From NCBI RefSeq assembly GCF_029227855.1, contig NZ_CP074356.1: a DNA stretch of 64,000 nt. One strand, written 5' to 3'. Below, piece by piece: positions 46,286-51,273 of the stretch. Each line of letters begins with the position of its first letter. Position 1 is the stretch's first letter. This DNA comes from Escherichia coli. Its GTDB lineage: Bacteria > Pseudomonadota > Gammaproteobacteria > Enterobacterales > Enterobacteriaceae. Below the pieces are notes generated by a model that made no database searches, was not told the origin of the DNA, and saw only the letters and a list, made by a program, of their open reading frames with translations. A program made the translations under genes and the position numbers.

Positions 46286-47032
46286 ATGTTAAAAAAGATA
46301 CTTTTACTGGCTCTGCTTCCTGCAATCGCCTTCGCAGAGGAACTTCCTGATCCAGTAAAAGCGATTGAAAAACAGGGTATTACGATCATCAAAACATTCG
46401 ATGCTCCCGGAGGAATGAAAGGTTATCTCGGAAAGTATCAGGATATGGGCGTCACCATCTACCTGACTCCAGATGGTAAGCACGCTATCTCCGGTTACAT
46501 GTACAACGAGAAAGGTGAAAACCTGAGTAACACACTTATCGAAAAAGAAATTTACGCACCAGCCGGACGCGAAATGTGGCAACGGATGGAACAATCCCAC
46601 TGGCTCCTCGACGGTAAAAAAGATGCGCCGGTCATTGTCTACGTCTTCGCCGATCCTTTCTGCCCATATTGTAAACAGTTCTGGCAGCAGGCTCGTCCGT
46701 GGGTAGATTCTGGCAAAGTGCAATTAAGAACATTGTTGGTTGGCGTTATCAAGCCAGAAAGCCCGGCGACAGCAGCGGCAATTCTTGCCGCCAAAGATCC
46801 CGCAAAAACCTGGCAAGAATATGAAGCCTCTGGTGGCAAGCTTAAGCTAAACGTGCCTGCAAACGTAAGTACAGAGCAAATGAAAGTGTTAAGCGATAAC
46901 GAGAAACTGATGGACGATCTGGGGGCAAATGTCACGCCAGCTATCTATTACATGAGTAAGGAAAATACACTGCAACAGGCCGTGGGGTTGCCCGATCAGA
47001 AAACGCTTAATATCATTATGGGGAATAAATAA
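46286..47032 (+). CDS. dsbG: Periplasmic thiol:disulfide oxidoreductase DsbG
   Basis: 248 aa from [17 protein letters not shown]; CPYC active site; in-frame upstream ATG at 46226. Confidence 0.92.
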
Positions 47033-47240
47033 AAGATAATTCATGGATGGTTGAACTATATCCCTGCTTTTCAACCATCCTAAAAAAGCATGAATTGCTC
47101 GCTCTGCCCTAAGTGGCTGTGCTATTTTAGTAAAACTTAATCCTGAGTTAAGCAAAAAAACATAATCAATAAAAATATATACGCAAAAAACATTGATTAA
47201 GTGAATATACCATGGAAGAAAAATATAACCGGAGTAGTGT

Positions 47241-48143
47241 ATGGCCAATCTCTACGACTTGAAAAAGTTCGACTTAAATCTTCTTGTCATATTTGAGTGT
47301 ATTTATCAGCATTTAAGCATTAGCAAGGCTGCTGAATCACTATATATCACCCCGTCAGCCGTGAGCCAGTCGTTACAACGCTTACGTGCGCAATTTAATG
47401 ACCCTTTATTCATTCGCTCAGGAAAAGGTATCGCGCCGACGACGACAGGGTTAAATCTGCATCACCATCTTGAGAAAAACCTCAGAGGCCTTGAACAAAC
47501 AATTAATATAGTCAATAAGTCCGAACTAAAGAAAAACTTTATTATCTACGGCCCTCAGCTCATTTCTTGCTCTAATAATAGTATGCTGATCCGCTGCCTA
47601 CGGCAAGATGCCTCTGTCGAGATTGAGTGCCATGATATCCTCATGTCAGCAGAGAATGCTGAAGAACTGTTGGTTCACCGCAAAGCCGATCTGGTGATCA
47701 CCCAAATGCCAGTGATCAGCCGTTCCGTCATTTGCATGCCATTGCATACAATTCGCAATACTCTAATTTGTAGTAATAAGCATCCGCGAATTACTGACAA
47801 TAGCACTTATGAACAAATTATGACAGAAGAGTTCACCCAATTAATATCCAAATCAGCAGGAGTTGATGATATTCAAATGGAAATAGACGAGAAGTTTATG
47901 AATCGCAAAATTTCATTTCGTGGTTCCTCTTTGCTGACAATCATTAATAGCATTGCAGTTACAGATTTACTGGGAATAGTCCCCTATGAACTTTATAACT
48001 CCCACCGTGACTTTCTTAATTTAAAAGAGATAAAACTAGAACATCCGTTACCTTCAATAAAGCTTTACATTTCCTATAATAAATCTTCTTTAAATAATTT
48101 GGTGTTCTCCCGATTTATTGATCGTCTAAATGAGAGTTTTTGA
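47241..48143 (+). CDS. ybdO: LysR-family transcriptional regulator YbdO
   Basis: 300 aa; N-terminal LysR HTH; strongly AT-rich coding sequence. Confidence 0.9.
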   Translation: MANLYDLKKFDLNLLVIFECIYQHLSISKAAESLYITPSAVSQSLQRLRAQFNDPLFIRSGKGIAPTTTGLNLHHHLEKNLRGLEQTINIVNKSELKKNFIIYGPQLISCSNNSMLIRCLRQDASVEIECHDILMSAENAEELLVHRKADLVITQMPVISRSVICMPLHTIRNTLICSNKHPRITDNSTYEQIMTEEFTQLISKSAGVDDIQMEIDEKFMNRKISFRGSSLLTIINSIAVTDLLGIVPYELYNSHRDFLNLKEIKLEHPLPSIKLYISYNKSSLNNLVFSRFIDRLNESF

Positions 48144-48289
48144 TATATAACCTCAGACAGCTATTATAACTTTCACCTATTTATTCACAGCACGAATGAA
48201 AAATAAAACACTCTGCTTTTCAGTGTTTACTTTATAATTAACAGTCTTATCTCACTGATCACCCCGTAACGTTCAGAGAGCGTTTTCAG

Positions 48290-49510
48290 ATGTCTATTTA
48301 TAAAATCCCGCTTCCACTGAATATTCTGGAAGCTGCAAAAGAACGTATTACCTGGACACTTAACACCCTACCCCGTGTCTGCGTTTCTTTTTCGGGTGGT
48401 AAAGATTCCGGATTAATGCTGCATCTGACCGCCGAACTTGCCCGACAAATGGGCAAAAAAATTTGTGTTTTATTTATCGACTGGGAAGCTCAGTTCTCTT
48501 GCACCATTAACTATGTTCAGTCCCTGCGCGAGTTGTACACCGATGTCATCGAAGAGTTTTACTGGGTTGCGCTCCCGCTTACAACGCAAAATTCCCTATC
48601 ACAATACCAACCCGAATGGCAGTGCTGGGAACCTGATGTCGAATGGGTACGTCAGCCCCCGCAAGATGCGATAACCGATCCTGACTTTTTCTCCTTTTAC
48701 CAGCCTGGCATGACCTTCGAACAATTTGTGCGTGAGTTTGCCGAATGGTTTTCGCAAAAACGTCCGGCGGCGATGATGATCGGCATCCGTGCGGATGAGT
48801 CCTACAACCGTTTTGTCGCCATCGCCAGTTTAAATAAACAACGTTTTGCCGATGATAAGCCCTGGACTACTGCCGCACCAGGCGGTCATAGCTGGTACAT
48901 ATACCCCATCTACGACTGGAAAGTCGCTGATATCTGGACCTGGTATGCTAGCCATCAACGCCTCTGTAACCCACTGTATAATATAATGTATCAGGCAGGC
49001 GTTCCTCTACGTCATATGCGAATTTGCGAACCTTTTGGTCCGGAACAACGGCAAGGATTATGGCTCTATCACGTTATCGAACCGGATCGCTGGGCTGCTA
49101 TGTGCGCACGAGTCAGCGGGGTAAAAAGTGGCGGCATTTACGCCGGACATGACAACCATTTTTATGGTCATCGGAAAATCCTCAAGCCCGAACATTTAGA
49201 CTGGCAGGAGTATGCATTATTGCTACTCAACAGCATGCCGGAGAAAACAGCTGAGCATTATCGCAATAAAATCGCCATTTATTTGCACTGGTATCAGAAA
49301 AAAGGCATCGAGGTTCCACAAACCCAGCAAGGGGACATTGGCGCGAAAGATATCCCCTCCTGGCGGCGAATATGCAAAGTTTTACTCAATAACGATTACT
49401 GGTGTCGGGCATTATCATTTAGCCCGACCAAAGCGAAGAACTATCAGCGTTATAACGAACGAATAAAAGGAAAACGTCAGGAATGGGGGATACTATGCAA
49501 CAACGATTAA
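48290..49510 (+). CDS. ybdN: PP-loop ATP pyrophosphatase of the PAPS-reductase superfamily, YbdN
   Basis: 406 aa; PP-loop SGGKDS (in VSFSGGKDSGLM) near N-terminus; 3' end overlaps ybdM. Confidence 0.9.
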   Translation: MSIYKIPLPLNILEAAKERITWTLNTLPRVCVSFSGGKDSGLMLHLTAELARQMGKKICVLFIDWEAQFSCTINYVQSLRELYTDVIEEFYWVALPLTTQNSLSQYQPEWQCWEPDVEWVRQPPQDAITDPDFFSFYQPGMTFEQFVREFAEWFSQKRPAAMMIGIRADESYNRFVAIASLNKQRFADDKPWTTAAPGGHSWYIYPIYDWKVADIWTWYASHQRLCNPLYNIMYQAGVPLRHMRICEPFGPEQRQGLWLYHVIEPDRWAAMCARVSGVKSGGIYAGHDNHFYGHRKILKPEHLDWQEYALLLLNSMPEKTAEHYRNKIAIYLHWYQKKGIEVPQTQQGDIGAKDIPSWRRICKVLLNNDYWCRALSFSPTKAKNYQRYNERIKGKRQEWGILCNND

Positions 49511-50112
49511 CGCAGGATTTAACCCAATTTCTCGCCAGCTTGCCGGAAGACGATCGCATCAAAGCGATTAATGAAATCCGCATGGCGATCCATCAGGTTA
49601 GCCCCTTTCGAGAAGAGCCAGTGGATTGCGTTCTGTGGGTTAAAAACAGCCAACTTATGCCTAATGATTACAACCCAAACAACGTGGCACCACCCGAAAA
49701 AAAACTGCTGAAAAAATCCATTGAAATAGATGGTTTTACCCAACCCATTGTGGTCACGCATACGGATAAAAATGCCCTGGAAATCGTGGATGGTTTTCAC
49801 CGCCATGAAATTGGTAAAGGCTCATCATCGTTAAAATTACGCTTAAAAGGTTATTTGCCGGTGACCTGTCTGGAAGGTACGCGTAATCAACGCATCGCCG
49901 CGACTATTCGTCATAATCGCGCCCGTGGACGTCACCAAATCACTGCCATGTCAGAAATCGTCCGTGAACTCAGCCAGTTGGGATGGGACGATCATAAAAT
50001 CGGCAAAGAGCTGGGAATGGACAGCGACGAAGTGCTACGCCTGAAGCAAATTAACGGCCTGCAAGAGTTGTTTGCCGACCGTCAATATTCCCGCGCCTGG
50101 ACGGTTAAATAG
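49483..50112 (+). CDS. ybdM: ParB/sulfiredoxin-like domain protein YbdM
   Basis: 209 aa; ParB N-domain-like signature (PIVV...ALEIVDGFHRH); alternative ATG at 49495 has a better-spaced ggggga RBS. Confidence 0.88.
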   Translation: MGDTMQQRLTQDLTQFLASLPEDDRIKAINEIRMAIHQVSPFREEPVDCVLWVKNSQLMPNDYNPNNVAPPEKKLLKKSIEIDGFTQPIVVTHTDKNALEIVDGFHRHEIGKGSSSLKLRLKGYLPVTCLEGTRNQRIAATIRHNRARGRHQITAMSEIVRELSQLGWDDHKIGKELGMDSDEVLRLKQINGLQELFADRQYSRAWTVK

Positions 50113-51273
50113 CTAAAGCTGGCGCAGGCGTTCAGCTGCTGCCAGCAACGTCGATTCCTTCTTGGCAAAACAGAGACGAATCAGTTTATGTGGGAAGGGA
50201 TCGGCGCAAAACACCGATAGCGGAATCGCCGCTACGCCGTGCTCCTGCGTCAGCCACTGGCAAAACTCAACGTCATCCAGCGTAGACACGGCGCTGTAAT
50301 CCACCAGCAAAAAGTATGTACCTTCGCACGGTAAAATCTCCAGCCGACTCTCACTTAAGGCATTCACCAGAATATCGCGTTTCTGGCGATAAAAGTCCGG
50401 TAACGCAAGATAATGCTCAGGTTCTGCACGTAGCATATCCGCAAGTGCCAGCTGTGCCGGGGTATTCACCGAAAAGGTCAGATACTGATGTACCTTGCGA
50501 ATTTCGGCACTGATGGGCGCTGGCGCAACGCAATAACCCACTTTCCAGCCGGTCATATGATAGGTCTTGCCAAACGATGACACCGCCACCGCCCGCTCAC
50601 GCAGCTGCGGATGCGCCAGCACGCTGGCATGGCCCTGTTGTGAAAAGTTGATGTGCTCGTAAACTTCATCGCTAATGACAAAAATCTCGTGCCCGGCAAT
50701 TGCCTGCCACAAAGCGGCGAAATCAGCCTGCTGCCAGACAGTTGCACTGGGGTTATGCGGGGTGTTGAGGATCACCAGTCGGGTGCGCTCGCTTAACAAT
50801 GCGGCAAATTCCTGCCAGTCCACGCGAAAATGCGGTGGTTGCAGTGCAATACGTTTCACTATTCCCCCCGAAAGCGCGATGGCGGGCGCGTAACTGTCAT
50901 AGCTGGGATCAAAGCAGATCACTTCATCACCATTGCGCACCAATGCGGTAATCGCTGCATATAACGCTTCCGTCGCCCCTGCCGTTACGGTGATATCACT
51001 ATCGGCATCCGGTTGATAGCCATACAGACGTTCCGTTTTCTGAGCAATCGCCTCGCGCAAGGCCTGCACGCCAGTCATAGGCGCGTATTGGTTTGCCCCC
51101 TGGTCAACATGGTACGCCAGCCGCTCCTGCAAATAGCGCGGACCATCAAAATCAGGAAAGCCTTGCGACAGGTTAATCGCCTGGTGTTGCTGCGCCAGCG
51201 CGCTCATCTGGGTGAAAATAGTGGTGCCAAGTTGTGGAAGTTTGCTTTGTGGAATCAGAGGGTTATTTGTCAT
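50113..51273 (-). CDS. ybdL: PLP-dependent methionine aminotransferase YbdL
   Basis: 386 aa class I/II aminotransferase; stop codon abuts ybdM stop. Confidence 0.93.
   Translation of the reverse strand: MTNNPLIPQSKLPQLGTTIFTQMSALAQQHQAINLSQGFPDFDGPRYLQERLAYHVDQGANQYAPMTGVQALREAIAQKTERLYGYQPDADSDITVTAGATEALYAAITALVRNGDEVICFDPSYDSYAPAIALSGGIVKRIALQPPHFRVDWQEFAALLSERTRLVILNTPHNPSATVWQQADFAALWQAIAGHEIFVISDEVYEHINFSQQGHASVLAHPQLRERAVAVSSFGKTYHMTGWKVGYCVAPAPISAEIRKVHQYLTFSVNTPAQLALADMLRAEPEHYLALPDFYRQKRDILVNALSESRLEILPCEGTYFLLVDYSAVSTLDDVEFCQWLTQEHGVAAIPLSVFCADPFPHKLIRLCFAKKESTLLAAAERLRQL

Follow-up and report, generated by a model that had tools for sequence, protein, structure and literature searches.

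What the products of ybdN and ybdM do is the question raised by a pair of adjacent genes in a 64,000 nucleotide (nt) stretch of Escherichia coli DNA (contig NZ_CP074356.1, assembly GCF_029227855.1), which is referred to as a whole as the window. In RefSeq, ybdN is named 'phosphoadenosine phosphosulfate reductase' and ybdM 'IbrB-like domain-containing protein'; this annotation and the kinship with IbrAB were already known. An earlier note on this DNA stated that neither protein has an assigned biochemical function, and none was found for ybdN/ybdM, IbrA/IbrB or the domain DUF3440 in the full-text literature searched, where YbdM was described in 2022 as 'completely uncharacterized' (PMC8764527). 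The ybdNM locus is a real, testable orphan system. Judged from its sequence, it is the E. coli chromosomal copy of the IbrA/IbrB pair, kept silenced. The IbrA/IbrB pair is an obligate two-gene unit of phages, prophages, islands and many bacterial phyla, and is mainly a phage and prophage module. As to its action, the reading favoured here, tentatively and with less than even confidence, is that of a DNA-bound complex performing an ATP-dependent, non-sulfur covalent modification or remodelling of DNA.

The loci compared were 80 from species-representative genomes and 79 viral contigs, with their open reading frames searched using iterated profiles. A YbdM homologue adjoins the YbdN homologue on the same strand at all 86 loci of the first set, which is made up of phage records and species-representative genomes. 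These pairs mostly overlap or sit less than 20 nt apart, and the enzyme gene is nearly always first. Of the 79 viral contigs from IMG/VR, 56 have an IbrB-like gene adjacent and a further 12 have one within 1 kb (68/79). Pairing of this order is far beyond chance. The species-representative loci span Proteobacteria, Bacteroidota, Firmicutes and Verrucomicrobia, together with one contig binned as Heimdallarchaeota. Among 50,697 phage records searched by tblastn, YbdN is present in 224 and YbdM in 226, and the breakdown by host is near-identical for the two (Flavobacterium 90, Mycobacterium 60, Streptococcus 21, Arthrobacter 12, Bacillus 8). Both lytic and temperate phages carry the pair. An exhaustive search of 1.84 billion representative proteins returned 218 clusters at E <= 1e-30; a word-indexed protein search returned close enterobacterial orthologues only.

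The clearest exceptions to the pairing in untruncated viral contigs are L132, L133, L137, L139 and L140, the others being a handful of truncated contigs. These five belong to one Bacteroides-type prophage lineage, in which IbrA has no IbrB-like gene nearby and is encoded between cargo genes and a lysozyme gene.

In the window, the 3' end of ybdN overlaps ybdM by 28 nt, as the earlier note had observed, and this overlap suggests that the two genes are translationally coupled. Such coupling is likely, given the overlap or near-abutment at most homologous loci. An in-frame ATG at 49495 is an alternative ybdM start, which would shorten the overlap to 16 nt. The first ybdM ATG is preceded by AAGGA at 11 nt and the second by GGGGGA at 4 nt, both of which are plausible Shine-Dalgarno sequences. 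Contact between the proteins was modelled with AlphaFold2 as a YbdN-linker-YbdM fusion, using a paired alignment of 20 concatenated same-locus sequences. Although the linker has 30 disordered residues, the predicted template modelling score for the 645 residues is 0.73, and the YbdM part has predicted local distance difference test values of 85-93. Short strands at YbdN 5-11 and YbdM 204-208 appear in the fusion model and are absent from the model of YbdN alone, a hint that the YbdN N-terminus may contact the conserved C-terminal F-S-x-A-W tail of YbdM.

YbdN had been read as an ATP pyrophosphatase with an SGGKDS PP-loop, of the phosphoadenosine phosphosulfate (PAPS) reductase type. This is borne out by the sequence and by the Pfam match to PAPS_reduct (PF01507, 2.4e-13), beside which there is an additional weak match to a PP-loop family. 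The catalytic domain is followed by DUF3440 (PF11922, 5e-23), and this two-domain architecture is present in all of 120 homologues among the matches listed, as read from precomputed domains. The PHROG matches are phrog_2302 (1e-76) and phrog_15645 (9e-86). In an alignment of 54 diverse homologues with 21-49% identity, G37, K38, S40, D64, E66, W113, D214 and Y230 are invariant, while the positions conserved in at least 90% include S35, G36, D39, G165, R167, E170, S171, R174, P206, D209, W210, R244 and P248. Apart from the PP-loop, the motifs of the catalytic domain are D64/E66, G165-x-R167-x-x-E170-S171 and P206-x-x-D209-W210. No cysteine is invariant in these 54 homologues, and the most frequent cysteine column of the family (45/54) is Ala94 in E. 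coli YbdN. The catalytic C-terminal cysteine of CysH (ECGLH-type) is likewise absent from YbdN, where the helical DUF3440 occupies the place of the cysteine-bearing C-terminus of CysH.

Structurally, the catalytic domain of YbdN is closest to flavin adenine dinucleotide (FAD) synthase, CysD and the adenosine phosphosulfate (APS) and PAPS reductases. The next matches are TilS/MesJ (13.1), TtuA (11.7), the NAD and GMP synthetases, LarE and QueC. Compared with PDB sequences, the YbdN-family profile matches CysD at 3.5e-11 and FAD synthase at 1.6e-9. Every curated NCBIfam family cut-off is missed widely, with 34.1 bits for TIGR02057 (cut-off 254.2), 33.3 for NF002537 (154), 23.8 for TIGR00434 (165.1) and 24.1 for the CysD model NF003587 (195); the score for PRK08557 is 37 bits. 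Because of these profile and structural matches and the missed cut-offs, YbdN/IbrA is judged to be a PP-loop ATP pyrophosphatase of the PAPS-reductase/CysD/FAD-synthase (adenylyl-transfer) branch that stands outside the characterised families. Where reactions are known in this branch, the enzymes transfer AMP to a sulfate or phosphate group or act on one. The conserved motifs, the low ratio of nonsynonymous to synonymous substitution (dN/dS) and the near-universal presence in E. coli argue that YbdN is an active enzyme rather than a relic. No structural relatives of DUF3440 emerged among the listed PDB matches, which span only about 160-200 residues, approximately the size of the catalytic domain. 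Identification of DUF3440 as an integrase SAM-like domain or as Ndc10_N was considered from weak Pfam hints and rejected, these being below significance.

The database name, and the fact that the closest solved structures are of these enzymes, would fit an ordinary metabolic role in which YbdN is a PAPS/APS reductase, an ATP sulfurylase subunit or an FAD synthetase, carried by phages as an 'auxiliary metabolic gene'. Almost no weight is given to this, since the cut-offs are missed by so much (34 vs 254, 33 vs 154 and 24 vs 195 bits), the CysH catalytic cysteine and a CysN-like GTPase partner are absent, and neither the obligate link to a ParB-like protein nor the extra DUF3440 is fitting. By its cut-offs, missing cysteine and obligate partner, YbdN was thus rejected as a metabolic PAPS reductase, CysD or FAD synthase, and the common database label is probably misleading for phage annotation.

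The structural neighbours also bear on RNA as a substrate. YbdN might adenylate a tRNA or rRNA base, as TilS, TtuA and ThiI do, with YbdM as an RNA- or nucleoside triphosphate (NTP)-binding helper, and phages would thereby tune translation or escape anticodon nucleases. This is improbable, as the tRNA-type enzymes are structurally more distant than the FAD synthase/CysD/CysH branch, there is no iron-sulfur (Fe-S) or catalytic cysteine set, and the partners (a ParB fold with a helix-turn-helix, SNF2, HNH) are of DNA type.

The description of YbdM as a ParB-like protein with the motif IVDGFHRH (residues 101-108) is correct, as seen in the sequence and in the Pfam match to ParB_N (54-109, 2.8e-4). 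YbdM also matches phrog_2159 at 4.5e-69. In an alignment of 37 homologues, the invariant positions form four motifs, N-x-Y-N-P-N, the box I-like S-I-x-x-x-G-x-T-Q-P-I-V, D-G-F-H-R and T-I-R-H-N-R-A-R-G-x-H, C-terminal to which is a conserved helix, G-M-D-x-D-E-V-L-R-L-K-Q. The invariant residues include D103, G104, H106 and R107, and R143, N145, R146, A147, G149 and H151. In the profile alignment DGFHR falls on the GERR of Noc and ParB, and R-H-N-R-A-R-G-x-H may correspond to ParB box III. In the PDB, the YbdM-family profile matches N-domains of Noc, ParB and Spo0J (1.6e-6 to 1e-3), along with weak matches to two serine kinases, SbnI and SerK. Foldseek aligned the YbdM part of the model with C-terminally truncated Noc, ParB and KorB over approximately 150 columns at E values of about 1e-6 (Noc 6.9e-7). 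This is longer than the ParB N-domain and suggests that the alignment reaches into the DNA-binding helical domain. YbdM ends about 15 residues past the helical region, without a C-terminal dimerisation domain, and scores 15.8 bits against TIGR00180 (cut-off 58.45). From these comparisons, YbdM/IbrB is taken to be a ParB N-domain fold with DGFHR replacing GERR, followed by a helix-turn-helix-like region. The nucleotide preference of a ParB-type fold is not predictable from sequence or AlphaFold 3 (PMC12704722).

The earlier note had likened the pair to DndC/DndB of DNA phosphorothioation and had mentioned the ParB-like partners of the 7-deazaguanine (Dpd) system. Its general idea, that a PP-loop enzyme of PAPS-reductase type next to a ParB-fold protein points to work on nucleic acids, holds; the specific likenesses do not. 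YbdN scores 21.7 bits against TIGR03183 (DndC), with a cut-off of 290.4 and a match over residues 145-222 only, which is below its CysH-type scores (33-34 bits) and its score for PRK08557 (37 bits). In PADLOC, its matches to DndC (21.7 bits, 2e-5) and BrxP (1e-4) are both partial and weak, and YbdM has a weak match to the ParB domain of a type II methyltransferase (8e-4). YbdM matched none of DndB, DGQHR and DpdB, at E <= 0.01 in NCBIfam and E <= 1 in PADLOC. Of the profile placements proposed in the earlier note, those with DndC, DndB and DpdB failed, and YbdN falls likewise below the PAPS-reductase and CysD cut-offs. Membership of Dnd, Ssp, Dpd or BREX-4 systems was ruled out by these NCBIfam and PADLOC searches.

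A minimal Dnd/Ssp-like phosphorothioation system, in which YbdN acts as DndC, YbdM as DndB and sulfur comes from the housekeeping IscS, would draw on the shared superfamilies, the resemblance of DGFHR to DGQHR, the weak partial DndC matches and the rise of the sulfate-assimilation regulon together with ybdNM in a citR mutant (PMC9068703). It is hardly credible given the scores above and the lack of an invariant cysteine in a family whose commonest cysteine position is Ala in YbdN, where DndC requires a cysteine dyad (PMC10853773). The genes flanking the pair in the window are citR and ybdL, in agreement with the earlier statement that no DndA-, DndD- or DndE-like genes are adjacent. Nor were Dnd-type partners recognised when the neighbours of related loci were clustered, a step in which no Dnd-specific models were run on the neighbours and which gave only SNF2-like and GNAT-like proteins as recurrent partners. 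To our knowledge, E. coli K-12 DNA is not phosphorothioated. As judged from these profile searches and motifs, ybdN-ybdM is not a Dnd phosphorothioation system.

The PADLOC searches also address the role in host defence that the earlier note had raised. The complex could sense infection and then deplete nucleotides or damage DNA, with the ParB-fold protein as effector and the PP-loop enzyme draining ATP. In conflict systems, ParB/Srx-fold proteins have been proposed to act as effectors with nucleotide-degrading or nicking activity (PMC10853773), a type I restriction system and a type VI secretion system (T6SS) cluster are neighbours of one accessory ibrAB copy, and overexpression of ybdM lowers the growth rate by 10% (PMC8764527). 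Set against this, neither YbdN nor YbdM has a significant match to a defence system in PADLOC-DB v2, the pair occurs in virulent phages, being common in those of lytic lifestyle (Flavobacterium, S. thermophilus and cluster-B-type mycobacteriophages), and ybdNM is core in E. coli, not a variable island gene. A defence function is therefore improbable, to about the same degree as RNA modification.

Two gene families recur beside the pair, and the clustering of neighbours across related loci found no third family common to many of them. An SNF2-related ATPase of approximately 410 residues (SNF2-rel_dom and Helicase_C; phrog_62) is encoded directly upstream of the enzyme gene at 20 loci of the first set and was detected in 29 viral contigs. 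Some of these partners, such as L057:8736-9992, are without Walker A (GTGKT) and DExx motifs; the copies in L001 and L003 retain both. Those without the motifs are presumably inactive, as the sequences suggest, and perhaps structural. The second family is a GNAT-like protein of approximately 137 residues, directly upstream at 21 first-set loci and detected in 8 viral contigs. Its profile matches acetyltransferases at 3.8e-5, and divergent members match RimI-type models. The acetyl-CoA-binding motif R-x-x-G-x-G/A, kept by divergent viral members (L097, L099, L149), is apparently missing from the Bacteroidales protein (L078:2372-2785 and 20 similar genes).

Other partners are less widespread. 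The IbrB-like protein of L127:9271-10275 carries a fused HNH endonuclease domain at its N-terminus (phrog_59, 1e-36). The C-terminal extension of the long IbrB forms (L023 type) has no Pfam or PHROG assignment. Several other upstream partners (phrog_27058, 5809, 16123 and 26647) are small proteins with no assigned function. A phrog_26647-like protein of approximately 135 residues is encoded upstream of some IbrA genes (L046:7966-8361, L094:3521-3928), and in P0123 (535 residues) such a protein is fused to the IbrA N-terminus. These sequences suggest that it may be a further partner.

The position of the pair differs between phages. In actinophages of Arthrobacter and Mycobacterium it is directly 5' of the terminase genes, and in one of these phages, Gadjet, no small terminase is annotated; Flavobacterium and Pseudoalteromonas phages have the pair just upstream of the portal gene. 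The first two arrangements would suit an accessory of packaging or genome ends, in which the packaging site is read by the ParB-like protein in the manner of a small terminase, processing or capping of DNA ends falls to the PP-loop enzyme, and ybdNM is a domesticated remnant. In Streptococcus and Lactobacillus phages, however, the pair is between the lysis and early genes, many bacterial loci have no recurrent neighbours beyond the SNF2- and GNAT-like partners, and in E. coli the pair has no packaging genes near it and is strongly constrained by purifying selection. This makes a packaging role very improbable, more so than defence.

The actinophage arrangement has a second reading. Late-gene activators occupy the pre-terminase position in other phages, and the pair could be a transcription co-activator or anti-silencer. 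YbdM/IbrB would then act like VirB, KorB or BisD, switched by NTP, relieving H-NS-type silencing or redirecting RNA polymerase, while YbdN/IbrA would be an ATP-dependent loader or regulator, with no covalent modification taking place. This is the main rival; it is unlikely, and yet has to be taken seriously. IbrAB of E. coli strain ECOR-9 reportedly activates prophage eib genes, as Sandt, Hopper and Hill are said to have found in 2002, and a homologue appears in one NCBI record as 'IbrA family prophage gene co-activator'. The fold of YbdM matches KorB, Noc and ParB. A PerC-family regulator gene is 3' of the accessory ibrAB copies, and citR, next to ybdNM, is H-NS-silenced. The SNF2 partners, too, could act on RNA polymerase, as RapA does. 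On the other side, YbdM, at 209 residues, does not have the dimerisation domain needed for a closed clamp, all of the PP-loop catalytic motifs are conserved across phyla although a mere scaffold would not need them, and the GNAT and HNH partners resemble enzymes.

Covalent modification of DNA is favoured over co-activation because the catalytic residues are conserved across phyla, because the recurrent partners are of translocase, transferase and nuclease types that act on DNA, and because lytic phages carry the module. In the mechanism proposed, YbdN and YbdM would be made in a fixed ratio and form a complex, in which YbdM would bind DNA and an NTP and so bring YbdN to the DNA. In many phage versions an SNF2-type translocase would assist, sometimes with a GNAT-like protein or an HNH nuclease fusion. 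YbdN would spend ATP to adenylylate an oxyanion or carbonyl on the DNA or on a DNA-bound partner, leading to a non-sulfur covalent modification. For phages the outcome might be a marked or protected genome or a switch in gene expression; in E. coli pathotypes, the activation of eib prophage genes reported for the paralogue IbrAB would be an effect further downstream; and the core copy of K-12 type would be silent, acting only once repression by CitR and H-NS is lifted.

Several points weigh against this mechanism. We know of no modified nucleoside, substrate or activity for any member of the IbrA/IbrB family, and the substrates of PP-loop enzymes also include RNA, small molecules and proteins. 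The sole family phenotype known, the reported gene activation by IbrAB, fits a regulator as well as a modifier. IbrA occurs alone in a few prophages, and E. coli ybdNM has neither an SNF2 nor a GNAT partner. The SNF2 linkage could be partly synteny, SNF2 genes being common in phage replication modules, and the ATPase motifs are degenerate in some SNF2 copies. The fusion model comes with no error map, so that it suggests the contact between YbdN and YbdM and does not establish it.

A bolder and more specific form of DNA modification is also possible, and is doubtful. IbrA/IbrB may be a new sulfur-independent, ATP-dependent DNA-modifying machine in which a ParB-fold NTP switch positions a CysD/FAD-synthase-like adenylyltransferase, often with SNF2 and GNAT-like proteins, and in which a DNA phosphate or base carbonyl is adenylylated and the group is then kept or replaced. 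If so, the mark would serve phages in evading restriction or in timing the expression of late genes, and the E. coli chromosome would receive the same mark when ybdNM is derepressed.

The IbrAB-type relatives in E. coli and other enterobacteria are of two kinds. Second loci in Citrobacter, Edwardsiella and Enterobacter (L019-L021) encode homologues with 58-59% amino acid identity to YbdN, and in the Citrobacter one (L020) the IbrA homologue is 58% identical. The DNA of L020 is 77-79% identical to copies on accessory E. coli islands and plasmids that are annotated 'IbrB-like', and this accessory E. coli copy is, by its sequence relationships, of the IbrAB type. It was found in 26 of 5426 E. coli genomes, and is plasmid-borne in 2 places. 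The islands contain insertion sequence (IS) elements, and the PerC-family regulator gene is downstream of the pair (L087:8929-11137, L088:6981-9184). In L087, ibrA is frameshifted and the island has a T6SS cluster on one side and a type I restriction system on the other.

The chromosomal copy, in comparison, is nearly universal. Of 5426 complete E. coli genomes, 5420 contain the ybdNM segment, 5400 of them at no less than 80% query coverage, and in 4634 genomes ybdNM alone is 95-99% identical. For both genes dN/dS is 0.035-0.07 in comparisons with Citrobacter and with an E. coli-labelled genome that is very divergent, and the low values for ybdN and ybdM therefore indicate that both are maintained by selection. 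When citR is included, 1307 E. coli genomes fall in the 80-90% identity band. Hypervariability of ybdNM within E. coli was considered and ruled out, since the divergence is in citR and the spacer. The region of citR (ybdO) and its flanking spacers (47000-48290) has a G+C content of 32-44% and varies much more than ybdNM from one E. coli genome to another, in line with the H-NS-linked diversification published for ybdO, which is H-NS-repressed and unusually diverged among strains (PMC4720273).

One E. coli-labelled genome, that of strain SCPM-O-B-8794 (L007), differs from the window in ybdNM at 45-47% of synonymous sites. This is far beyond what is usual within E. coli and may therefore reflect membership of a cryptic clade or an exchange of the locus with another species.

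The regulator upstream is identified as CitR by NCBIfam NF047710, with 465 bits (cut-off 400). CitR binds upstream of ybdNM, where there is a peak in chromatin immunoprecipitation with exonuclease digestion (ChIP-exo), and represses ybdNM (PMC9068703). In RNA-seq of a citR deletion, ybdN rises by 5.5 log2 and ybdM by 2.5 log2 (PMC9068703). The same deletion raises the sulfate-assimilation genes cysDNC, cysJI and cysAWU by 2-2.8 log2 and flagellar genes by 3-5 log2 (PMC9068703 Table 1). The rise of the cys regulon alongside the derepression of ybdNM is the sole hint of a link to sulfur. In another setting, YbdM protein is 29-fold up in E. coli with a blaCTX-M-15 plasmid (PMC8764527).

The gene order is ahpC-ahpF, dsbG, ybdO (citR), ybdN, ybdM, ybdL, ybdH, ybdD and cstA, and the features of the locus are given in Table 1. 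A scan for promoter consensus sites found them to be no more numerous than in shuffled sequence, and the sigma-70-like site between citR and ybdN therefore stays a candidate. The ybdM stop directly abuts the stop of the convergent ybdL (50110-50115), with 0 intergenic bases and no terminator-like hairpin between the two stops, so that the transcripts of both genes should overlap.

Table 1. Positions in the window of the genes, domains and motifs of the ybdN-ybdM locus
Feature	Position	Strand	Description and basis
citR (ybdO)	47241..48143	+	LysR-type repressor of the ybdNM operon; AT-rich, H-NS bound
Candidate sigma-70-like promoter, TTGATA-16-TATTAT	48140..48167	+	10/12 consensus matches; citR-ybdN spacer (48144-48289, AT-rich)
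ybdN	48290..49510	+	IbrA-family PP-loop enzyme, 406 residues
Catalytic alpha/beta domain of YbdN	48377..48991	+	Residues 30-234; PF01507, conservation, structural matches
PP-loop SGGKDS	48392..48409	+	YbdN residues 35-40; ATP pyrophosphatase signature; read from sequence
DUF3440	48998..49438	+	YbdN residues 237-383; all-helical, C-terminal, IbrA-family-specific
ybdM	49483..50112	+	IbrB-family ParB-like protein, 209 residues; Pfam ParB_N, phrog_2159, PDB profile, Foldseek
Overlap of ybdN 3' and ybdM 5' ends	49483..49510	+	28 nt
DGFHR	49789..49803	+	YbdM residues 103-107; position of ParB box II (GERRxR), NTP-phosphate-binding loop
R-H-N-R-A-R-G-x-H	49909..49935	+	YbdM residues 143-151; most conserved stretch of the family
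Helical region with GMDxDE(V/I)LRLKQ	49939..50067	+	YbdM residues ~153-195; predicted helix-turn-helix; conservation, model helices, Foldseek

The ybdNM operon is one of the remaining operons of E. coli K-12 without known chemistry, yet it is near-universal and purifying selection on it is strong. Its link to a module in hundreds of sequenced phages turns it into a concrete question, that of the action of a PP-loop and ParB-like pair on DNA. If there is a new DNA mark, it would add a class to the short list of enzymatic DNA modifications, of use in phage biology, in evading restriction and possibly in biotechnology. If the pair is instead an NTP-switched anti-silencer, it would extend the VirB/KorB paradigm to an enzyme-coupled form and explain how IbrAB switches on prophage virulence-associated genes in pathogenic E. 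coli.

Among known systems, DndC/DndB (with SspD and BrxP) resemble the pair in having a PP-loop enzyme of the PAPS-reductase superfamily beside a protein of the ParB/Srx superfamily with D-G-x-H-R, in a DNA-directed context. YbdN differs in having no cysteine dyad or Fe-S motif, in carrying DUF3440 and in scoring far under the cut-offs, and the neighbours of IbrA/IbrB are SNF2-like and GNAT-like rather than Dnd-type. The Dpd system has a similar parts list, with a modifying enzyme, a ParB-like NTPase and SNF2-type ATPases (PMC12839542), whereas the IbrA/IbrB loci have no TGT-like DpdA and no match to DpdB or DpdC models, and YbdN is a PP-loop protein.

The catalytic domain of YbdN is structurally highly similar to CysD of CysD-CysN, but its partner is a ParB-fold protein instead of a translation-factor-type GTPase, DUF3440 is extra and the CysD cut-offs are missed. 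YbdM, in turn, shares with ParB, Noc, KorB and VirB the N-domain fold, the helical region that follows and a box I-like SIxxxGxxQPIVV. It differs from them in having DGFHR for GERRxR, no C-terminal dimerisation domain and no ParA partner, and its family is always coupled to an enzyme gene. The likeness to IbrA/IbrB of ECOR-9 and the O157 islands extends to the same two-domain and one-domain architectures, the gene order and the overlapping genes. The difference is one of setting, in that ybdNM is core chromosomal and has its own LysR repressor, CitR, while ibrAB is accessory and has a PerC-family regulator downstream.

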